Shown piece by piece: positions 10,085 through 62,897 of a stretch of 64,000 bases of DNA. A program made the position numbers and the translations under genes. Below the pieces are notes generated by a model. It ran no database searches and was not told where the DNA came from. It worked only from the letters and a program-made list of their open reading frames with translations. The first letter of the stretch is position 1. Every line of letters starts with the position of its first letter. This DNA comes from a phage: the sequence record OZ346228.1; one strand, given 5' to 3'.

Positions 10085-10410
10085 CAGAGATCATCATTTC
10101 AACTGCAGGGTATGTATTCCTGACAATCATTGCACTGGCTATTTTGGTGACAGTGTATGGGTTTGTTATCCTTCCTATCCTTGAGACATTTAGTTTGTGT
10201 CGGTGTTGGAGAAAAGCTTACGGTCCACAACCATGGAAGGACTGGCCCCACCTGGTGCGCTTAGCGTTCTCTTATGCTTACGATCACTCCAGTAGTGCAT
10301 GCATAACCGGATACCACGCCCACAACTGGAGCTGGGAAGGGTTGAGGAAATGGAATGTTACAAAGACCATACCTCTGCGCATGTACAAACCTAAAAACAA
10401 AGACAACTGA
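10081..10410 (+). CDS. hypothetical membrane protein
   Basis: RBS aaggggagga; hydrophobic segment IIISTAGYVFLTIIALAILVTVYGFVILPIL. Confidence 0.55.
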   Translation: MTEIIISTAGYVFLTIIALAILVTVYGFVILPILETFSLCRCWRKAYGPQPWKDWPHLVRLAFSYAYDHSSSACITGYHAHNWSWEGLRKWNVTKTIPLRMYKPKNKDN

Positions 10411-10990
10411 TACTTGAAAATTCCTGGCATATCAAGTATAAGGGGGATTTCTAAAATGGATTTCCTCCTTTTGATATTTCACCGGGCTGGATATTTTAAA
10501 ATTCTTAGAAAATCAGAAAATGGATCGAAAACTAAAATGGATTTTTCAGAGTAGGCGCGACAAGCTGAATAACTCATCCTATCGTTTGCACCATATTCCA
10601 GGCCACCATTATAGATTTCCCACACATGCTAACCTCTCCCTACTAGAACTTCCTCCACTTACCCTTGACCTTCTATGGTAACAATCTAACCGCTATCTTG
10701 AAGTTGCGGTGCAGCTTTCCAGGTACTCGATCTACTTTTCATTTCAGGGCTTGGATTTTCTGAAAATTTTTCTCGATAAATTTCTCAGTACTCGATCTGT
10801 TTTTCGTTTTCTGAATCGGATTTTCTGGAAATCGTTCCGGCTCTCAACCTGAAATTTTTGGGGACGAAATCGATTTTTCGTTTTCAGAAATGGATTTTTA
10901 AAATTTCTATATGGGAATATTTTAGTGGATACTGTTTTATAGGAAATTGTTACGGAGGGTAATTAGCATGCTAATTAAATTTATTAAATG
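10411..10990. repeat. iteron-like non-coding tract with several short direct repeat families
   Basis: aaaatggattt (about 4 copies), ggattttctg (2), gtactcgatct (2), cgatttttcgttttc (2); no credible ORF. Confidence 0.6.
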
Positions 10991-11009
10991 CGAGGAGTTC
11001 TCATTTAGA

Positions 11010-11240
11010 ATTTTGAATGATAATCATTCTCGTTTGCAGAATAACGGGCAGGCCCGGTGATTGTCTCCCGGCCCCTGTTGCCCCGGCTTGTTATTATAGT
11101 ATCACACAGGACAAAGAAAGCAAGGACTTTTTGCATAAATTTTTAAATGATAATGATAACCGTTCTCATTTTATGCAGCGCCCATCCCCGGTGGTTGTCT
11201 CCCCCGTCACCGGTGCCTGCCGTCCTTTCGATATGTATAT
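11010..11240 (+). promoter_or_regulatory. two Fur-box-like sequences, each heading a conserved GC-rich element
   Basis: gaatgataatcattctc at 11015-11031 and aaatgataatgataacc at about 11145-11161 resemble the Fur box GATAATGATAATCATTATC; each followed by tgcag... and a GGTGRTTGTCTCCC hairpin-like element. Confidence 0.45.
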
Positions 11241-11594
11241 TGTGCCACCTGGCGGGGCCGCTGTCAACACTTTTCAAAAAATTTTTCTAACCTGGTGCGC
11301 TAACCGTTGCAACCTGGCGGGGCCAGCCTGGCAGGACCTAACTGACCAGGTAGGGGAGAATGAAGGCTTGTAAACCTGGTGGGCCTATGCTACAGGATAG
11401 GTAACAATTGAAGAGGAGGTACAAAAATGATATGATCCCCCTGGAAAATGTAGCTATTAATGACTCTGAGGCTATCGCCCTGGTTGAAAAGGCTATGGCG
11501 GGAGCGTTGGAACATAAAGAAGAGTACGAAAATGGTGGTTAACCTGGCGGGGGCGGCAGGTGGATTCTATCATAAAAATAATTTAAAATAGTAG

Positions 11595-11623
11595 TTGACA
11601 ACAAGGTTAATCATGGTATTATT
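11595..11623 (+). promoter_or_regulatory. sigma70-type promoter
   Basis: TTGACA at 11595-11600, 17 nt spacer, -10-like ATTATT. Confidence 0.5.
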
Positions 11624-11672
11624 ACCCTACAAGGTGAACAACACCGCACTAACCAGTAAAGAGGATAAATTT

Positions 11673-11870
11673 ATGAACGCATACGGGATCAAAGTACGTC
11701 GCAACACTCGCCAGGTGGTCACCAATCAAGTGATTTGCCGGGTGGATGTAACCATCAACAACGGGCAAGGCCTTTATAAATTTCGTCGCGGTCATAGCTA
11801 TACCCTGCAACAGCTTAATCGTTGCGCCCTGACAAAAGGTCAGATCAACCACTGGTTTAATAAAAAATAA
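11673..11870 (+). CDS. hypothetical protein
   Basis: RBS aaagaggataaa before ATG; promoter upstream. Confidence 0.5.
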   Translation: MNAYGIKVRRNTRQVVTNQVICRVDVTINNGQGLYKFRRGHSYTLQQLNRCALTKGQINHWFNKK

Positions 11871-11873
11871 GTA

Positions 11874-11902
11874 TTGACATACAGTCAGACACCAAATACA
11901 CT
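11874..11902 (+). promoter_or_regulatory. sigma70-type promoter
   Basis: TTGACA with -10-like TACACT about 17 nt downstream. Confidence 0.5.
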
Positions 11903-11934
11903 AAAAGCACAAAAGACACTAAGAGGATAAAATC

Positions 11935-12120
11935 ATGAAAACCACTACCTTTAATTTTGATAATGCAGACTTTTCTTTTTCTGATGTCAAGAACTGCCGC
12001 CGTGATCGTGGATTTTACAAGGCTTATAATCTGGTGGGCCTGGACGATGACAATAATTTGCACGAAGTAGCTGAGATCCAGCTTGACAGATTGGACGGGA
12101 AAGTACTAAAAACTTATTGA
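11935..12120 (+). CDS. hypothetical protein
   Basis: RBS aagaggataaaa. Confidence 0.5.
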   Translation: MKTTTFNFDNADFSFSDVKNCRRDRGFYKAYNLVGLDDDNNLHEVAEIQLDRLDGKVLKTY

Positions 12121-12121
12121 G

Positions 12122-12167
12122 TTTATTTTTAGATGGCCTTGACACCAGGGCCATCAATAAAGTAAAC
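12122..12167 (+). repeat. repeated promoter/palindrome element, copy 1
   Basis: tttatttttagatggccttgacaccagggccatcaataaagtaaac; inverted repeat GATGGCC...GGCCATC enclosing TTGACA; directly follows a stop codon. Confidence 0.7.
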
Positions 12168-12320
12168 TAACCACAGTTGAGCGGAAAAGGAGGCTTAAAG
12201 ATGAGCACTACACGCCAGCACACAAAGGTAACCATCATCGTTTGCATCATTGGGTACATCCTGGCGCAAATGTTGATGGGTAGCGCCAACGGTGTCGCAA
12301 AATTTTTCTTAAACTTTTAA

Positions 12321-12348
12321 TTGACAAGCTAACTTAAATCGATATAAT
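12321..12348 (+). promoter_or_regulatory. sigma70-type promoter with AT-rich upstream tract
   Basis: TTGACA, 16 nt spacer, TATAAT. Confidence 0.7.
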
Positions 12349-12399
12349 AAGCACATAAACGGGAAAACTTCCCAGAACACACAAAAGGAGAAAAACACC

Positions 12400-12741
12400 A
12401 TGACTACTATGACCGCCTCAGAAAAAGCTATGCAGATCGCTGAACTGAAAAAACAGATCGCAGACCTTGAGAATAAGATCGATAACTTTGAAATCGACGA
12501 GGACAAGTACGACGAAAACTATGATGAATGGTTAGACGAGATCTACGGCGAAATTATGATCGGAAACATTTCTTTTCTTCCGTCGCGTATCCTCAAGGAG
12601 CTAGATCCTATCGCTTACCGCTGCGGATTTAGCGACTACATCGACAGCCTGGATATTGAGGACGATGAAGAATACCAGGAATTACAGACAGAGTTAGAAG
12701 AAGCAAAAGAAGAGCTTGCGGAGCTGGAAGAAAACGAGTAA
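12400..12741 (+). CDS. hypothetical acidic coiled-coil protein
   Basis: RBS aaaaggagaaaaa; promoter upstream. Confidence 0.6.
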   Translation: MTTMTASEKAMQIAELKKQIADLENKIDNFEIDEDKYDENYDEWLDEIYGEIMIGNISFLPSRILKELDPIAYRCGFSDYIDSLDIEDDEEYQELQTELEEAKEELAELEENE

Positions 12742-12742
12742 G

Positions 12743-12788
12743 CTTATTTTTAGATGGCCTTGACACCAGGGCCATCAATAAAGTAAAC
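12743..12788 (+). repeat. repeated promoter/palindrome element, copy 2
   Basis: Identical core to 12122-12167, immediately after a stop codon. Confidence 0.7.
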
Positions 12789-12830
12789 TTTATACTGTTA
12801 ACACTGAACTAATGCATAGGAGTTAAAACC

Positions 12831-13076
12831 ATGGCAGCACTAATCACCAAATATTATGCCCCTACCAACACCAAAAGCGCCCGTATCATGGTAAAAGGCT
12901 TCGGACGTAAAAAGGTGTACACCTGGGATTATGCCTTAGACACGGAAGACAACTACACCAACGCAATGACCGATTTTATTAATGAACTAAATAAGCAGAT
13001 CTTGACAAGTTATAAAGTGACCGATATTGCTTATATAGGTGAAGGCGGGATCTGTTTTGTAGGCATTGTGAAATAG
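12831..13076 (+). CDS. hypothetical protein
   Basis: RBS ataggagtt. Confidence 0.55.
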   Translation: MAALITKYYAPTNTKSARIMVKGFGRKKVYTWDYALDTEDNYTNAMTDFINELNKQILTSYKVTDIAYIGEGGICFVGIVK

Positions 13077-13150
13077 TTATTTTTTCGGTGGTCCTGGTTG
13101 CAGGGCCATCTATAAAGATAATTTATTAACACCATGAAAGGAGAAAGTAC

Positions 13151-13504
13151 ATGATCAGCGGGGCAAGTTTTATTATTGGCGCTATTGCTACGGCTTTAAT
13201 TGTAAATAAGATCCAGGATAAAAAGGAAAGAGGAAGTACCGCCCTTGCAGAATATCCATTTTGGGCATTCAACGATAACGAAGATTATATTATAAAGTAT
13301 AAAAATAAAGAAGGTGACCAAGTAACACCGCGACCGATCCCGGCTTACAAAATGCAGGAAACACTATACCGCCTGGAGGCGGGTGGCGCAAAAATTGTAG
13401 ACTTTTGGGGATACGACCACACAGATCAGGAAGTTATAAAGCGCCGTATCCGGGCTATTCAGGCCAATATTGAAGTTAGCAAGGGGGGAATATATGAAAA
13501 TTAA
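13151..13504 (+). CDS. hypothetical protein with N-terminal hydrophobic segment
   Basis: RBS gaaaggagaaag. Confidence 0.55.
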   Translation: MISGASFIIGAIATALIVNKIQDKKERGSTALAEYPFWAFNDNEDYIIKYKNKEGDQVTPRPIPAYKMQETLYRLEAGGAKIVDFWGYDHTDQEVIKRRIRAIQANIEVSKGGIYEN

Positions 13505-13691
13505 TTTCGAGAAAATTGTAAAGCGCCCTCATGATTCCGAAGAGCTGCCAGAACGCCGCCAGCGTAACAATAAACTGAATAAGCCAAAAAGGTTTGGGAA
13601 GATCTGGCGTAATCATTATGATCGTAAATTGCCCGGCCTACTTTTGGAACGTGAACGACAGGCAGAACGATACCGCCATAAAGACAAATAA
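13494..13691 (+). CDS. hypothetical basic protein
   Basis: RBS aagggggg before ATG (MKINFEK...). Confidence 0.45.
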   Translation: MKINFEKIVKRPHDSEELPERRQRNNKLNKPKRFGKIWRNHYDRKLPGLLLERERQAERYRHKDK

Positions 13692-13699
13692 CAACCAAC

Positions 13700-13730
13700 G
13701 CCCCGCCATTGTGCGGGGCTTTTTATTTCT
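13700..13730 (+). terminator. rho-independent terminator
   Basis: gccccgcc-attgt-gcggggc followed by ctttttatttct. Confidence 0.8.
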
Positions 13731-13848
13731 ATCCTACGAATAGCGCCCCTGGTTGGCCCTGTAAGCGCCAAAAAGGCCCCCACCTATGCAATCGCCCCTT
13801 TAACCTGAAAACATCGCCCAGGGCCGTTTCATGGCGTTAAAAATATCA

Positions 13849-13876
13849 TTGACATCGTCAACAGGTTAGCTATACT
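13849..13876 (+). promoter_or_regulatory. sigma70-type promoter
   Basis: TTGACA, 16 nt spacer, TATACT. Confidence 0.65.
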
Positions 13877-13908
13877 AACCACATCAAAGAGAGAAAGGAG
13901 TAAACGCC

Positions 13909-14169
13909 ATGCGTAAATTAAAAAATTTTGATAAAGTTGATGTTATCCTGAATAATTTTTACTACTGCAACAACAAGGCTATTTGGTGGCGTGATAGTTC
14001 CACCGATAAAGTCAGGGCGCGCTTTCTTCAGGGGCACTGGCAAGGCCGCCCAGTGATTAAAATCATGGGGCAATCGGTAGCGTTTAAAAATTGCCGCCGT
14101 GTTGATGACGTTGAGGAGATTTTAAACATTTTGCGCCACAATAATTTAAAAAATAGTGTTGACAAGTAA
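13909..14169 (+). CDS. hypothetical protein
   Basis: RBS gaaaggag. Confidence 0.5.
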   Translation: MRKLKNFDKVDVILNNFYYCNNKAIWWRDSSTDKVRARFLQGHWQGRPVIKIMGQSVAFKNCRRVDDVEEILNILRHNNLKNSVDK

Positions 14170-14186
14170 GCCTCAATAAGTATACT
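14159..14186 (+). promoter_or_regulatory. sigma70-type promoter (overlaps end of preceding ORF)
   Basis: TTGACA, 16 nt spacer, TATACT. Confidence 0.6.
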
Positions 14187-14243
14187 TAAACACACAGGCG
14201 GGAAAACTTCCCGCCACTAACAAAGAAAATAGGAGAAAATATC

Positions 14244-14867
14244 ATGACCACCGTTAACATTACCGCAGGTTACAATTTATCTTTCGACGTGCTGACCGAC
14301 GAACAAAAAGAAAAAGCCGTTGAAATGGTCCGCGAAAGAGAAGAACACAGCGGGGATAACTTTTTTGCAGAAAGTGTAATTGAATACTATAAAGAATATG
14401 TTTTTCCAGAGTATGGCCTTGAAGATACCGAAGTACATTGGTCAGGCTTTTGGTGCCAGGGTGACGGCGCGTCAATCAGTGCTGAAAACGTGGATTTAGA
14501 AAAATTTTTACGTAAAGTAAAGGCCCTGACCAAGTTCCGATCAATTCGTCACTTGTTCGGCACAATGCACGATGGCGAGTTATCAGCCAGTGTTGAACGC
14601 GACAAGTACAGCCATTACAGCCATGAAAACACTGTAAGCGGGTACATTGATACCACTTGGCTAGATCTGACCGCCAAACAAGAAAACAAAGTGGAAGACC
14701 TGGAAGAACTGATCACCGAGACGGTACGGGAGCTATCCCGCAAGGTTTACGTAGACCTGGAGGAGGCCTATCTAGAACAGTTCACCGCAGAAAACCTGAT
14801 CGGCCTTATCGAGGCCAATGATTGGCGGTTTGATGTCGATGAATATGGTGAGATGACTTTTTCATAA
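14244..14867 (+). CDS. hypothetical protein
   Basis: RBS aataggag; 207 aa. Confidence 0.6.
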   Translation: MTTVNITAGYNLSFDVLTDEQKEKAVEMVREREEHSGDNFFAESVIEYYKEYVFPEYGLEDTEVHWSGFWCQGDGASISAENVDLEKFLRKVKALTKFRSIRHLFGTMHDGELSASVERDKYSHYSHENTVSGYIDTTWLDLTAKQENKVEDLEELITETVRELSRKVYVDLEEAYLEQFTAENLIGLIEANDWRFDVDEYGEMTFS

Positions 14868-14957
14868 ATAAAGTGTTGCAATAACCTAAAAACCTGCTAT
14901 ATTAAAACTCAAGGGGGCAAGACGTTTGCCCCAACACAAAACAAAGAGGATAACATC

Positions 14958-15338
14958 ATGAAAAACACTACCAAGGCTATTGACACCGTTATGTTTAACC
15001 TGGTTACATTCCGTGAAGATATGAAAGATCTTCCTCGTGAAACAGTGTGCGACCATATCGAAAACTATCGCAAACTAATCAAAGAGTTGCCTTTAAAACG
15101 TGATCAATATGCGGCTAACGCCATGCTTAATGCCATGATCAAAAAGATGATCCAGTGTGATTTAACCCTGGCCTATGATTATGCAGGCGGTCGTTTTGCA
15201 GTATACAATCAGCCCGTGCCCGGTATGAGCACCACCGAAGAATTGCACGCGCTCAATCTAAAACAAGACGTGTGGGATAGTATGCCTCGCGTGGTGGTAT
15301 GGGTAGAAAGCGGAAAGATTTACGGCGATAATTTTTAA
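14958..15338 (+). CDS. hypothetical protein
   Basis: RBS aaagaggataa; promoter-like TTGCAA...TATATT upstream. Confidence 0.55.
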   Translation: MKNTTKAIDTVMFNLVTFREDMKDLPRETVCDHIENYRKLIKELPLKRDQYAANAMLNAMIKKMIQCDLTLAYDYAGGRFAVYNQPVPGMSTTEELHALNLKQDVWDSMPRVVVWVESGKIYGDNF

Positions 15339-15402
15339 TCAGGTAGCAGGCGGCATATTTGCCGCCTTATTGTTAATCAGAACTGTAAAAGAGGTACATA
15401 GA

Positions 15403-15774
15403 ATGGAATTTATTATTTTGGCTGTATTGGTTGCCTTGTTTAACGCCTGGATCGCTGGCAAGATGGGAAGATCCGCCTTTTTATGGTTTATTATATCTAT
15501 TTTCCTGGGGGTGGTTGCAACTATTGTATTGGTTATCCTTGCAATTGTTGACAAGGGGAATAATAGAAAGGGTAAAGTATTTTCAGACCTGTACGACGCT
15601 CAAACGTTTGTCAACGCCTATTATAGTGATCTTCCAGTCTCCCTACGTTGCAGCCTTGCACAACAGGTTTTCGATGAAGCTAAAACCAGAGATCACGCCC
15701 ATGAGATTTGTTTAACTGAGGCGGATCGCCTATTTGAGAGGAATAGAAAATATGTGGACCAGCCGTTTAAATAA
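15403..15774 (+). CDS. hypothetical membrane protein
   Basis: RBS aagaggtac; two hydrophobic segments. Confidence 0.5.
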   Translation: MEFIILAVLVALFNAWIAGKMGRSAFLWFIISIFLGVVATIVLVILAIVDKGNNRKGKVFSDLYDAQTFVNAYYSDLPVSLRCSLAQQVFDEAKTRDHAHEICLTEADRLFERNRKYVDQPFK

Positions 15775-16117
15775 TGCCACGTTAATTAACCCCTTTAGTA
15801 AAGATTTGAAGCCAGCCGCCTGGCGGGATGGATTCAATAACGAACGCTTTATTTTCAGGCCTGATCTTGAGGAATTTTATAACAATGGATCGAACAACAG
15901 CGGAGATAATTTTTCTTGTGGTGTGTGTCGTGATAGGACTCCTGGGGGGCCATTGTAGATCGCGTCACTACTACCAGAAGGAAAGGGGAGACGATGACAA
16001 CCAAGGATAAGCCCCGCACCGATAAGGTGCGCCGTGTTATGGTATGGCTTGAGATCATCGCCCTTGAAATATTGTTAGGCGTAGGGATGTATTTTATCTC
16101 TGTAAGTAACTGATAAC

Positions 16118-16150
16118 GGCCCCCGATCCCTGGGGGGCCTAACTTTTTTC
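16118..16150 (+). terminator. rho-independent terminator
   Basis: ggccccc-gatccct-ggggggcc followed by a T run. Confidence 0.8.
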
Positions 16151-16256
16151 AAAAAATTTTTCTTCCGGGGTGTTGCAATCCGGTCCTGAATATGGATAAT
16201 AACAATCAACGGGGAAACATCCCCACCAACACAAAAACCAGAAAGGAGAAACAAAA

Positions 16257-16457
16257 ATGAGCAACAATATCCGCGTTATTAACTTCAAAAAAGAAGAAAA
16301 AATTGCCGTGCTGATTGACGGTCAAGAAATCTTCAAGGGCGACTATGAAGATCATCAAACGGCGATTAGTATCACTCGCGTGATTGGTTACCATAATTTT
16401 TACCCCCAAGGCGCTGAGGCGGCGGTTAAACGAATCAAAGAGATTGTAGGCCTGTAA
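16257..16457 (+). CDS. hypothetical protein
   Basis: RBS aaaggagaaac. Confidence 0.5.
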   Translation: MSNNIRVINFKKEEKIAVLIDGQEIFKGDYEDHQTAISITRVIGYHNFYPQGAEAAVKRIKEIVGL

Positions 16458-16461
16458 AATT

Positions 16462-16505
16462 TATTTTTAGATGGCCTTGACTCTAGGGCCATCAATAAAG
16501 TAAAT
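16462..16505 (+). repeat. repeated promoter/palindrome element, copy 3 (variant)
   Basis: ttatttttagatggccttgactctagggccatcaataaagtaaat, immediately after a stop codon. Confidence 0.7.
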
Positions 16506-16550
16506 TTAAACCCTGTTAAAATACCACGCAGTTAACAAGGAGTAATGATC

Positions 16551-16850
16551 ATGTTTATCCAGGCTAATAATCTTTATTTCTTTGATGGTCAGATCGTAGA
16601 TGGTGTGGAAGTGGAGATCACTGGGTGCCCTGGTGGTCAGGCTATGACTTTTCGGAATAATGCCTTTGATGATTCTCATATCGTTATGAGAATGGAAGTT
16701 ACAAAGCTGGACGACAAGAAAACGCTCATTGACTATTCCGTGAAAGATCATCCAGACTACCACATGATCTATGGTGATTTGTGCATTGTTGACCGTGACA
16801 AGGTGGGCGGCATTGTGATCGCTATTGTGAACGATGTTTTCTCTGTATAG
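16551..16850 (+). CDS. hypothetical protein
   Basis: RBS aaggag 8 nt before ATG. Confidence 0.5.
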   Translation: MFIQANNLYFFDGQIVDGVEVEITGCPGGQAMTFRNNAFDDSHIVMRMEVTKLDDKKTLIDYSVKDHPDYHMIYGDLCIVDRDKVGGIVIAIVNDVFSV

Positions 16851-16907
16851 TTCCGCAAATGATGCAAAAGAAGGCCCCTAGCAGGGCCTACAGCGATATA
16901 ATCACAT

Positions 16908-16941
16908 AAAGGCCATGCAACCGCATGGCCTTTATTATTTT
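16908..16941 (+). terminator. rho-independent terminator
   Basis: aaaggccatgc-aacc-gcatggccttt followed by attatttt. Confidence 0.85.
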
Positions 16942-17073
16942 GGCGTTACAGCGGCCCCAAGGCGCTTAAAAATTTTTTAAAGAAGTACTTGCATCAAGCC
17001 CTACAATATGGATAATAGGACGTGTCAGGGGGGGAGGCCCCAATCATTAACCGGATAGATAGGAGTTAAAACC

Positions 17074-17358: not shown

Positions 17359-17420
17359 ACCTGGCGGGGCCGAAAAGGCCCCCGCCTGAAATTATGAAAA
17401 ATAAAAAGAGGCAAACTATC

Positions 17421-17654
17421 ATGATGGAACAAATTAAACGCGCTGAGGCTATTAATGGCAATGTAATCTATTTTGTCAGCAAAAACGAAAAAGGCGTACC
17501 CTATGCGGCGGTAATAGTACAGCCTGACGGCGATTATTGGTGCACTGTGTACGGCGCTTATTCTTTTGGGCGTCCAGTGCATGATAAAATTTTGAAAGTA
17601 GCGAACCCTACCGGGAAAAATATTACAGCAGAAAAATTTTTTGAAAAAAGTTGA
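17421..17654 (+). CDS. hypothetical protein
   Basis: RBS aaagaggc before internal ATG (MMEQIK...). Confidence 0.5.
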   Translation: MMEQIKRAEAINGNVIYFVSKNEKGVPYAAVIVQPDGDYWCTVYGAYSFGRPVHDKILKVANPTGKNITAEKFFEKS

Positions 17655-17683
17655 CATGACCATATAAAACTGTAGTATATAAA
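17651..17683 (+). promoter_or_regulatory. sigma70-type promoter
   Basis: TTGACA followed by TATATAAAT-type -10 region; precedes a 59 aa ORF at 17731-17910. Confidence 0.5.
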
Positions 17684-18002
17684 TCAAAAGGGGGCAACAA
17701 GCCCCACCAACCACAAAGAGGATAAAAAATCATGGCTATTATTGCAAAGACCGAGATCGTAGGCTTAGATTCTATTCTCCTCGCATATGAGGAAGCTATA
17801 GAAATGTATGTGGTTTCCTATGGTGAGTATATCCGTGAATATGAATCTATTGATCTAGCTTTTGAATGTTATATTCGCCAGGTTAATAAAGCGTACGATG
17901 ATTATCGTTAAAATAGTTTGACAACAAACAACCATCTAACAAAGCATAATACATAAGGTGGTAGAATGATCCGCCACCCGGAACAAAGAAGAGGTAAACA
18001 CC

Positions 18003-18399: not shown

Positions 18400-19150
18400 C
18401 AACATTTTTCGTAAACAGCTCGAAATTATAACGGTGAGTTATAATAAACAGAGAAATCTTTAGTCGTCTAATGTTTACTGTACATTACTATACTGACTGG
18501 AATCATTAGATGACTAAGAGAAAGATAAGAAATCATTAACAATGCAATTGTTTTATTCGTAACAATAAGGCAACTATGCAAACGGATGGCATGGCGCGAC
18601 GGAGTCGCGACATAATATAAAAGCAGTAACCATCACCCCCGTGATAGTTTGTCTGCAAACTATTAATCAGATCATAGTTGCCTTGTATTTAGTTAATCAT
18701 GACATAACAAGCAAGGCAACTATAGATCTGCTAATAGTTGCCCTGCTTTTATATTATGTCATAGATTATTAGCCTGTTAATTGTTAGTCAGTCAAATCAA
18801 CAACGTTATCATTTCAGTCTTTATTGTTGTTGATCGTTATTGTTATCATGCAAACGAATGGCATGGCTTATCATTTTTGAGTAAACAATCTATACGTGAA
18901 CAGTGAGGCATGCAATAGTAAGGGCGGGAATAATGAGAGTGTAAACTGTCAGGCATGTCAATTATATCAATCGTGTCAGTTATGTCACCATTATGTCAGA
19001 CAAGTTTTTCTCCTCTTTGTCAAGTGCTGCATGAAAAATTTACAATCTTGTATGGTAGCATTTTTGCGGCCCTGTTTACATTCAGTATTGTATGTATAAT
19101 CCTTGTTGTGTGGGCGTTTAGACGTCTAGACGGTCAGAAGTCTGCAGGTT
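18400..19150. repeat. palindrome- and repeat-dense non-coding region between convergent transcription blocks (candidate origin or packaging/regulatory region)
   Basis: 18 bp inverted repeat gacataatataaaagcag / ctgcttttatattatgtc; aaggcaactat / atagttgcctt inverted repeats; direct repeat atgcaaacgRatggcatggc (2 copies); hairpins gcgcgac-gga-gtcgcg and atagtttg-tctgc-aaactat. Confidence 0.55.
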
Positions 19151-59547: not shown

Positions 59548-59619
59548 ACCAGTAAAAACTTAAATATCTGTACTATAAGGATTCGTATGTTTTATGTTCG
59601 CCATGGAACGGATACTATT

Positions 59620-59705
59620 AACTGTCCGTGATACGGACACTACTGTCCGTCACGCGGACACATCTGCCCGTAATACGGACACTAACTGTCCGTGATACGG
59701 ACACA
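59620..59705. promoter_or_regulatory. four tandem palindromic operator-like sites
   Basis: GTCCGTgatACGGAC (59624-59638), GTCCGTcacgCGGAC, GCCCGTaatACGGAC, GTCCGTgatACGGAC (59688-59702), centre-to-centre about 21 bp. Confidence 0.6.
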
Positions 59706-62084: not shown

Positions 62085-62159
62085 GCCCTGTTAGCTTAGT
62101 GGATAAAGCAGCGGCCTTCTAAGCCGTTGACACTGGTTCGAGTCCAGTACGGGGTGCCA
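62085..62159 (+). tRNA. tRNA-Arg (anticodon TCT)
   Basis: Manual fold: D stem GCTT/AAGC, anticodon loop CTTCTAA, T loop TTCGAGT, 3' CCA encoded; acceptor stem has two G-U pairs. Confidence 0.7.
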
Positions 62160-62163
62160 AATT

Positions 62164-62250
62164 GGGGAGTTATCCCGTAGAGGTAGCGGTGTAGACTGTA
62201 AATCTATTGTCATTGCGACTCGGGTGGTTCGACTCCACCACTCCCCACCA
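62164..62250 (+). tRNA. tRNA-Tyr (anticodon GTA), long variable arm
   Basis: Acceptor GGGGAGT/ACTCCCC, anticodon loop CTGTAAA, T loop TTCGACT, CCA encoded. Confidence 0.8.
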
Positions 62251-62364
62251 AATTTATATTTTTAGATGCATAAATAATACAGATAATGGCATTGATATTT
62301 ATCGTCGTTTATACTAGTCACTAACTGCTCGAAAATCAGTGTCATTATCAGTATTATTTATAAA

Positions 62365-62455
62365 GGAGGGTAGGGAGCAATGGTGCTCAATCGGTCTTGA
62401 AAACCGTCCCGTTGAGGATGACTCGATGATGGTTCGATTCCATTACTCTCCGCCA
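62365..62455 (+). tRNA. tRNA-Ser (anticodon TGA), long variable arm
   Basis: Acceptor GGAGGGT/ACTCTCC, anticodon loop CTTGAAA, T loop TTCGATT, CCA encoded. Confidence 0.7.
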
Positions 62456-62553
62456 CATTGTTGACCTTGTAATTAAGCGAAAGTCGGAAGCAGAACCGGA
62501 TTATCAAATGTTACAGTCGTCATCGCCGACTAGCAACATGGTCAACATACTGA

Positions 62554-62652
62554 GCTAGGTAAGCCCTTTGGCAAGGGCGAGGATTTTTAATCCTGAAAAT
62601 AGACGAGGTAGTCGTTGAATACATAGGTGGTTCGATTCCATCACCTAGCACC
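62554..62652 (+). tRNA. atypical tRNA-like gene; anticodon loop TTTTTAA (Lys-TTT-like), about 28 nt extra between anticodon and T arms; may be a pseudo-tRNA
   Basis: Acceptor GCTAGGT/ACCTAGC, D arm GCCC-TTTGGCAA-GGGC, T loop TTCGATT; variable region far longer than class I; CCA not fully encoded. Confidence 0.35.
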
Positions 62653-62657
62653 TTTTT

Positions 62658-62733
62658 GCTGATGTAGCACAATCGGTAGTGCAATTGATTTGTAATCAAT
62701 AGGTTGTAGGTTCAAGTCCTGCCATCAGCACCA
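62658..62733 (+). tRNA. tRNA-Thr (anticodon TGT)
   Basis: Acceptor GCTGATG/CATCAGC, anticodon stem-loop ATTGA-TTTGTAA-TCAAT, T loop TTCAAGT, CCA encoded. Confidence 0.8.
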
Positions 62734-62734
62734 A

Positions 62735-62809
62735 GGCCCTGTAGCTGGAAGGTTCAAGCAAGCGACTCATAATCGCCAGACGGTGGTTCAATTCCACCCA
62801 GGGCCACCA
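62735..62809 (+). tRNA. tRNA-Met/Ile2-type (anticodon CAT)
   Basis: Acceptor GGCCCTG/CAGGGCC, anticodon loop CTCATAA, T loop TTCAATT, CCA encoded. Confidence 0.8.
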
Positions 62810-62820
62810 AATAGTAAATA

Positions 62821-62897
62821 CTCCGCGTAGCTCAGCTTGGTAGAGCGCCTGATTTGGGATCAGGAGGTCGAGTGTTCGAATCACTCCGTGGAGACCA
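62821..62897 (+). tRNA. tRNA-Pro (anticodon TGG)
   Basis: C1-G72 acceptor, D stem GCTC/GAGC, anticodon stem-loop CCTGA-TTTGGGA-TCAGG, T loop TTCGAAT, CCA encoded. Confidence 0.8.

Follow-up and report, generated by a model that had tools for sequence, protein, structure and literature searches.

A 49-nucleotide (nt) element that occurs four times in the early region of a phage genome (sequence record OZ346228.1; the 64,000-nt stretch that was analysed is called the window) probably serves as a composite intercistronic cassette, acting as a promoter on the DNA, as a hairpin on the RNA and, as a repeat, as a site of recombination. Cassettes of this kind are known as promoter-early stem-loops (PeSL) from the T4-type phages RB49/phi1, PST/T4 and nt-1/KVP40 (Arbiol et al. 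2010, PMC2839356; Comeau et al. 2014, PMC4122927), and the sequence comparisons given below lead us to regard the element as a composite cassette that is PeSL-like but differs in geometry and comes from a phage lineage new to this kind. The element is absent from Rfam, from the rV5 genome paper and its supplementary promoter and terminator tables, and from the annotation of the RefSeq rV5 record, which carries no feature at this place. At the Rfam gathering score the element is unmatched and within the window only tRNAs reach that score, and at E values up to 10 the element region gives sub-threshold chance matches only, with no family.

A megablast search with positions 11000–17000 matched 129 phage records, of which 109 cover at least 80% of the region at 90–98% identity. 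The matching records are all Vequintavirus, the rV5-like myophages of Escherichia coli, with phage Alma giving the top match at 98%. The repeats lie on the + strand in an early region that is dense with hypothetical genes of 40–130 amino acids (aa), and the genes flanking the copies encode hypothetical proteins of 40–117 aa.

The original prediction described three near-identical copies of a 45 bp repeat that carry an inverted repeat and stand right after stop codons, and this was borne out. The pattern GATGGCC-N10-GGCCATC is exact at 12132, 12753 and 16470 and has two mismatches at 13087; with up to three mismatches allowed there are six matches against 1.4 expected, and the full 45-mer is found three times against an expectation of 0. 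The repeated unit is however 49 nt long rather than 45, as the repeat search gave one 49-nt family of four members, with identities of 98, 92 and 71% for copies 2, 3 and 4 (Table 1). The degenerate fourth copy, which had been placed at about 13083–13110, does exist, but its hairpin is well preserved and it is the TTGACA that is missing. A search for further copies across the whole 64 kb with a covariance model (R1) returned the four known copies and no others, at 70.7–80.4 bits on the + strand compared to 33–44 bits on the - strand, and all four fall within 4.4 kb. Among 60 records sampled by BLAST the element was found at three places per genome in most and at two to four in a few. The first paired base of the hairpin lies 1–2 nt inside the stop codon of the upstream open reading frame (ORF) in all four copies (gaps of -1, -2, -2 and -1), these upstream ORFs are annotated genes in relatives (rv5_gp189, gp187, gp186 and gp174), and the next ATG follows 27–44 nt past the hairpin.

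Table 1. Positions of the element copies and of the associated features in the window.
Feature	Position	Strand	Details
ORF upstream of copy 1	11935..12120	+	in-frame fusion of gp190 N-terminus and gp189 C-terminus
Copy 1	12120..12168	+	covariance model 80.4 bits; hairpin and promoter-like hexamers; lower stem 12120-12129 / 12159-12168; internal loop 2x3; upper stem 12132-12141 / 12146-12155; tetraloop ACAC 12142-12145; -35 TTGACA 12139-12144; -10 TAAACT 12163-12168 (N18); T-tract 12123-12131
Cassette between copies 1 and 2	12169..12740	+	40-aa ORF 12201-12320; promoter TTGACA-N16-TATAAT (strong) 12321-12348; 5' hairpin 12360-12374; 113-aa ORF 12400-12741
Copy 2	12741..12789	+	78.9 bits; core same as copy 1; -35 12760-12765; -10 12784-12789; after stop codon of 113-aa ORF 12400-12741
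Copy 4 (diverged, 71% identity)	13075..13123	+	70.7 bits; tetraloop GUUG; no -35 (CTGGTT); after stop codon of 81-aa ORF 12831-13076
Genes past copy 4	13151..13719	+	ORFs 13151-13504 and 13470-13691; canonical terminator 13700-13719, then TTTTTATTT
Copy 3	16458..16506	+	78.2 bits; -35 TTGACT 16477-16482; -10 TAAATT 16501-16506; after stop codon of 66-aa ORF 16257-16457

The whole 49-nt unit forms a two-helix hairpin of 20 bp on the + strand. A basal A/U stem of 10 bp is followed by a 2x3 internal loop and then by a G/C-rich upper stem, also of 10 bp, that ends in a tetraloop; the free energy is -21 to -25 kcal/mol and the z values are -4.9 to -6.9 in the four copies. The 7-bp inverted repeat noted earlier is present, but it is part of the upper stem, which stacks with its tetraloop on the lower stem. 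The same 10 + 10 bp hairpin is formed by every copy, each with at least two G.U pairs. As several of the pairs are G.U, the - strand folds far worse, copy 4 giving -22.4 kcal/mol on the + strand and -8.1 kcal/mol on the - strand, and the hairpin of copy 4 is maintained via G.U and compensatory changes. A permissive hairpin scan (at least 17 bp, -15 kcal/mol or lower) was noisy within coding regions and a tightened version was used.

Conservation of the fold was measured on the four sites from 14 Vequintavirus genomes or contigs, which gave 30 distinct aligned sequences and, for the structure of 20 pairs, 600 cells. The same four positions are occupied in all 14 of the genomes read, with substitutions that preserve the structure, and the element is thus conserved in relatives, a point on which the original prediction could have failed. 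Standard pairs fill 98.7% of the cells. Four pairs of the basal stem change on both sides (G-C/A-U/G.U, U-A/C-G, U-A/A-U and A-U/U-A), and in the upper stem four pairs vary, each on a single side and in every case compatibly with G.U pairing on the + strand (A-U to G.U, C-G to U.G, U.G to C-G and G-C to G.U). Our tally of the pair table gave 78 G.U cells compared to about five A.C cells, the latter being confined to the two outermost pairs of copy 2. Among 500 shuffles none reached the values found for pairing, for the covariation score or for the count of double-changed cells, and when the partner was slid by 1–3 columns as a control the pairing fell to 35–56%. The consistent direction of these changes points to selection on a single-stranded structure of the + strand, most simply RNA. 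Individual irregularities were also observed: copy 1 of phage Gotham (L003 1544-1593) has lost 5 nt of the upper 3' arm, copy 4 of Alma (L001 3756-3812) has one extra base in each arm, and a 1-nt frameshift in gene 165 of Alma (L001 2411-2827) places its annotated stop inside the loop of the element.

Copies 1–3 contain a sequence of the form TTGAC(N)-N18-TAAA(C/T)T, which matches the sigma70 hexamers at 10, 10 and 9 of 12 positions, being TTGACA-N18-TAAACT in copies 1 and 2 and TTGACT-N18-TAAATT in copy 3, with TTATTTTTA located 7 nt upstream of the -35. The -35 occupies the apical loop and the -10 the 3' arm of the basal stem, so that the overlap of the inverted repeat with a -35-like hexamer, and with it the combination of a hairpin and a sigma70-like promoter, stands as first proposed for these three copies. 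In copy 4 the TTGACA is replaced by CTGGTT, and no other suitably spaced hexamers are present. The only annotation of the element met among the records is in that of Gotham, where two copies are labelled 'promoter predicted by PhagePromoter'. Hexamers by themselves are weak evidence for a promoter. The TTGAC of copies 1–3 is, however, invariant in all genomes, the loop A and C that form positions 4 and 5 of the -35 never changing, while loop positions 3 and 4 drift (A/T/G/C and C/T). The loop of copy 4 varies at positions 2–4 and always begins with G. Since TTGAC stays fixed within a drifting loop, and since unrelated hairpins in other phages repeat the design, the promoter of copies 1–3 is probably real.

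These other hairpins were found in phages of several groups. In the phi92-like phage EmilieFrey a hairpin that starts in a stop codon (L027 9708-9764) carries TTGACA in its apical loop and a -10 matching at 5/6 positions at N17-18, and the TTGACA in the loop and the 5/6 -10 at the same spacing recur in two hairpins of the phi92-like ESCO5 (L029 24685-24740 and L029(-) 8629-8578). Phage Av-05 has three hairpins abutting stop codons (L028 9326, 12377 and 13551) in which it is the -10 that lies in the loop, with promoters of the TTGACG-N16-TATAAT type, and the -10 likewise lies in the loop of PeSL 199/198 when re-read from the RB49 sequence. The covariance model gave no matches in the early regions of Av-05, EmilieFrey and ESCO5, and the analogues in these phages are therefore not detectably homologous to the element. 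In a scan of IMG/VR with YAGGGCCATCNATAAAG, 18 of 21 loci were chance matches, and a metagenome scan with a gapped pattern returned only Vequintavirus contigs together with two chance matches that the covariance model rejected.

The role of the repeat in recombination is seen in phage magaca (L005), which is missing precisely the 621 bp between copies 1 and 2, corresponding to the cassette and one repeat copy. Its single element has the left flank of copy 1 on one side and the right flank of copy 2 on the other, and the IMG/VR contig L016 carries the same hybrid element and lacks the same cassette. The hybrid is an exact recombination product between the two copies. The first reading had gone further and compared the elements to hotspots of gene shuffling; one such product supports this, but two other indels break elsewhere, so that the term hotspot rests on a single module. 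The first of these indels is a deletion of 685 bp specific to the present phage when compared with Alma, isim and rV5, which has its breakpoint at 12073-12079 in a 7-nt microhomology (GAGATCC) and created the fusion ORF upstream of copy 1 from the first 48 codons of the gp190 homologue and the last 13 codons of the gp189 homologue. The second is a difference of about 365 bp from Alma and isim at 16843-16862, the breakpoints of which are again not at elements. The 81-aa gene between copies 2 and 4 has homologues of 43–46% identity in the unrelated siphophages CAjan, Greed and slur01, of about 60 kb, and weaker ones in Pseudomonas and Klebsiella phages, which suggests that this ORFan has been exchanged across phage families. 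A tblastn search with this gene for intermediate relatives matched unrelated siphophages and was uninformative on the element.

Taken as a composite cassette, the element would act at two levels. On the DNA, copies 1–3 would each supply a sigma70 promoter with an UP-like T-tract that restarts transcription for the next small gene. On the RNA, a transcript arriving from upstream would fold the whole 49 nt into a hairpin of two turns that begins at the stop codon, and because copy 4 keeps the hairpin without the promoter the hairpin is taken to be the conserved core. Through endonucleolytic processing it would most likely mark or stabilise the upstream cistron at its 3' end, the preferred enzyme being host RNase III, which would cut the 3' strand of the internal loop (CCAUCAAU^AAAG). 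The choice of RNase III is tentative, and we give it about one chance in three; partial attenuation or a plain exonuclease barrier are possible alternatives. As a repeat, the element would provide a site for homologous recombination that removes or adds the flanked gene cassette. A more specific form of this proposal, which we hold to be rather doubtful, is that a host promoter embedded in an RNase III-type hairpin forms a module for cutting and restarting, with cleavage about 17 nt upstream of the new starts. Each small early gene would then receive a hairpin-capped 3' end and a near-uniform 5' end, whichever promoter made the RNA. Myophages of the rV5-like, Av-05-like, phi92-like and RB49-like kinds would each have acquired independently the design of stop codon, two-turn hairpin and -35 or -10 in the loop, and the hairpin would double as the recombination joint for cassette exchange.

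Intercistronic hairpins of two turns without a U-tract are a hallmark of the early RNase III sites of phage T7. The sites R0.3, R0.5, R1, R1.1 and R1.3 were folded for comparison, and like the element they form a hairpin family repeated between the early genes of a polycistronic unit, lack a U-tract, and combine an upper stem of 9–10 bp that contains G.U pairs and ends in a tetraloop with an asymmetric internal loop and a weaker basal helix. The determinants of RNase III cleavage comprise two helical turns, at least 11 bp between the cut and the tetraloop, a distal box of UA/UG and a proximal box of G-C, A-U/U-A, A-U and A-U/U-A with no G-C at position 2, while internal loops limit cleavage to one strand and leave a protective 3' hairpin (Pertzev & Nicholson 2006, PMC1540722). 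In the predicted structure the 10 + 10 bp of the element are coaxial across the 2x3 internal loop and amount to about two helical turns. T7 R1.1 and copies 1–3 share a distal-box-like U-A / U.G step beside the loop-closing pair (U26-A33 and U25.G34 in the copies), the placement of the box in R1.1 being our reconstruction from the numbering of PMC1540722 and the T7 sequence. At the proximal box, position 2 of the element is an allowed A-U, and the bases at position 4 are mismatched, as A.A in the element and as U.C in natural R1.1. In the internal loop, the 3' strand is 3 nt long and reads UAU in T7 and copy 4 and AAU in copies 1–3. From the 10-bp upper stem, the position of the loop and this 3-nt strand, a cut is predicted 13 nt past the loop, as in R1.1 (CCUUUAU^G), which is expected to fall at CCAUCAAU^AAAG. 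The element has no homology to the T7 sites in sequence, and it differs from them in its basal stem, a regular helix of 10 bp, in its smaller internal loop and in its embedded host promoter. The likeness to the T7 sites is thus a resemblance and not a demonstration.

Several points weigh against the composite reading. Promoter-like sites are common in this A/T-rich region, where 61 were found and 34 would be expected. Beside the neighbouring TTGACA-N16-TATAAT promoters, both the N18 spacer and TAAACT fall short of the optimum. The enrichment of TTGAC in hairpin apices is modest, with four independent cases after paralogues are collapsed, and other 5-mers tie with it. The aligned sequences are closely related (92–98%), so that the compensatory changes represent only about four to five independent events, and G.T pairs would stabilise a hairpin of + strand DNA as well. 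Copy 4 has C-G where the distal-box U.G stands in copies 1–3, and positions 1 (U-A) and 3 (G-C) of the proximal box differ from the optimum (G-C and A-U). Loss mediated by the repeat is seen for one cassette only, the two nearby indels ending elsewhere, and a search of the literature found no transcript mapping in rV5-like phages (Vequintavirus).

Some of these points would favour a pure RNA element, that is, a hairpin for processing or stability (a T7-type RNase III site or a 3' exonuclease barrier) in which the hexamers arise incidentally from a GC stem that ends in UUG and from an A/U-rich basal stem. Such an element would account for a copy 4 hairpin that is kept by compensatory changes in the absence of a promoter and for the architecture resembling T7 R1.1; promoter-like sites arise frequently by chance here, and the -10 is necessarily complementary to the T-tract. 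It does not explain why TTGAC is invariant in copies 1–3 of 14 genomes when the neighbouring loop bases are free, why unrelated hairpins of other genera also place TTGACA in the loop with a well spaced -10, or why the Av-05 and RB49 analogues carry near-consensus promoters, and we judge it an unlikely alternative.

An intrinsic or factor-assisted terminator or attenuator that insulates neighbouring cassettes, as proposed for the stem-loops of PeSL, is less likely again. The hairpin is stable, GC-rich and placed directly after stop codons, and the stem-loop of RB49 PeSL211/210 lowered reporter expression as the rrnB T1 terminator did (PMC2839356). However, no U-tract follows any copy on either strand, the tails being A-rich: CAAUAAAG follows the upper stem, and AACCACAG, UUAUACUG, UAUUAACA and UAAACCCU follow the whole hairpin. 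For lack of a 3' U-tract no copy is a classical terminator, and none of the copies was among the 24 terminator-like sites listed by a terminator scan of the region, unlike the genuine terminators with T-runs at 13700, 15348, 16118 and 16906. Copy 4 lies within a unit that starts at the promoter of copy 2, comprises the 81-aa gene and two more genes, and ends with the terminator at 13700. The sole promoter-like site between copy 4 and the next gene overlaps the start codon of that gene, so that the two genes past copy 4, having no usable promoter of their own, have to be transcribed through its hairpin, which therefore cannot be an efficient terminator. An intrinsic terminator was rejected on these three grounds, and the original suggestion of a transcript-end hairpin is doubtful in so far as it meant termination.

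The original prediction also considered that the promoter could be operator-controlled. On this reading GATGGCC/GGCCATC would bind a dimeric phage or host regulator that shuts off the early promoters, and it is true that the inverted repeat brackets the -35; Fletcher et al. 2026 also have a section heading on palindromes of terminators that serve at the same time as transcription-factor sites. The pairing nevertheless spans 20 bp, including the basal A/U stem far from the -35, and the differences between the arms are transitions that keep G.U pairing on the + strand, joined in the lower stem by compensatory double changes, none of which is predicted by a protein half-site model. These changes argue for a fold of the + strand rather than a symmetric protein site. 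Copy 4 moreover retains the 'operator' without a promoter, and stronger promoters of the region are without such a repeat. The pairing over 20 bp, the nature of the changes and the promoter-less copy 4 led us to reject the protein operator, which is very improbable. A selfish or neutral palindromic repeat (of the repetitive extragenic palindrome or miniature inverted-repeat transposable element type) spread by recombination without a regulatory role is just as improbable, since the confinement of a small family to one genus, its tie to a presence/absence polymorphism and the 5-nt deletion in the 3' arm of the Gotham copy are set against occupation of the same four positions with structure-preserving substitutions, a fixed position relative to the stop codons and the next ribosome-binding site, and no target-site duplications seen.

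Other features of the window were also observed. About 1 kb at ~10410-11414 is without an annotated gene in relatives and corresponds to a 'non-coding' box in the rV5 paper; it holds three 47-nt repeats spaced 65–74 nt apart (10713-10898) and G/C-rich hairpins. The motif ACCTGGCGGGG, for which 0.4 occurrences are expected, is present four times (at 11247, 11312 and 11542, and further away at 17359). A very stable long hairpin is formed on both strands at 18671-18766 (-21 kcal/mol on + and -25 kcal/mol on -; 21–23 bp), where + strand early genes give way to - strand genes, and it may be part of a divergent control region. At 59619-59704 there are four tandem units of 21–22 nt, each with the palindrome GTCCGT-N3-ACGGAC (TAACTGTCCGTGATACGGACAC), and this array looks like a set of binding sites (iterons or operators). 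It lies 2.4 kb upstream of a cluster of six tRNAs on the + strand (62085-62894; Rfam RF00005, 29.9–76.8 bits). Among the database records, 17 named 'Campylobacter phage' (MG0656xx, host C. jejuni) are 92–95% identical to E. coli Vequintavirus genomes in the region; A147, the only one opened, is flagged UNVERIFIED, and these records are probably mislabelled or contaminant assemblies.

If the composite reading is right, cassettes of promoter and stem-loop that regulate and shuffle early ORFans are not peculiar to T4-type phages, and large virulent myophages dependent on the RNA polymerase of the host would have arrived at this solution repeatedly. Of the forms seen here that of rV5 is the most compact, with UP-like tract, -35, spacer and -10 in one RNA helix, and would therefore be a clean test bed for separating function at the DNA level (promoter) from function at the RNA level (processing or stability). 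The elements would also offer natural joints at which genes could be added to or removed from therapeutic rV5-like phages, and three putative promoters and four RNA structures would be missing from the reference annotation.

The element can be compared with three further kinds of promoter and stem-loop combination. In the promoter-coupled terminators of bacteria (Fletcher et al. 2026 preprint, 10.64898/2026.08.19.745784), the T-tract of the terminator lies in the spacer just upstream of the -10 and 3' ends fall about 10 nt before the start site. As in the element, the -35 coincides with DNA encoding the stem-loop of the upstream transcript, and the arrangement lies between tandem genes. The element has the -35 in the loop, but its spacer is CAATAAAG and the T-tract or U-tract of that class is absent.

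The second kind is the ordinary early cassettes of the same phage, a commoner class found at 12321-12395, 13849-13880, 14159-14215, 16173-16231 and 17651-17706. These consist of an A/T-rich tract, TTGACA-N16-TATAAT or TATACT, a short G/C hairpin of the GGGAA..TTCCC type, a CA-rich leader (ACACACAAAA) and GGAG, a leader design closely like that of RB49 PeSL193/192 (..CTCCCAACACAAAACAAAAGGAGA). They share with the element the region, the strand, the A/T-rich upstream tract and the combination of promoter and stem-loop, but their stems are short (5–8 bp) and G/C-rich, and the hairpin, placed past the start site or, at 13864-13880, over the -10, belongs to the transcript that the promoter itself makes.

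The closest comparison is with the PeSL of RB49, which on re-reading follow the order of stop codon, AAAAAGTTG, TTGACA, a G/C stem-loop of 7–8 bp in the spacer or over the -10, TATAAT, a CA-rich leader and GGAG. In the element the whole predicted promoter is instead enclosed in a bipartite hairpin of 20 bp, the apical loop of which holds the -35, and this promoter is weaker (N18 and TAAACT) than the RB49 consensus of TTGACA-N17-TATAAT. PeSL are present in many copies across hyperplastic regions, whereas the element has only four copies, one of them promoter-less, although promoter and stem-loop cassettes of other sequence fill its region. It is unrelated in sequence and belongs to a different phage subfamily. 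Promoter and terminator activity as well as mini-circles were demonstrated in RB49 (PMC2839356, PMC4122927). The resemblance first proposed is nevertheless upheld by the shared composite of promoter and stem-loop, the intergenic position, the ORFan context and the role in recombination. Both kinds of cassette lie among small early ORFans and span the gap between a stop codon and the ribosome-binding site that follows. In both, an A/T-rich tract precedes the -35 (AAAAAGTTG in RB49 and TTATTTTTA here), and a sigma70-type promoter is overlapped by a stem-loop that contains G.T pairs. Both occur as repeats, and when two flanking copies recombine the gene between them is lost and one hybrid copy is left, the topology of the cassette loss in magaca being that of RB49/phi1 ORFan192 (PMC2839356).

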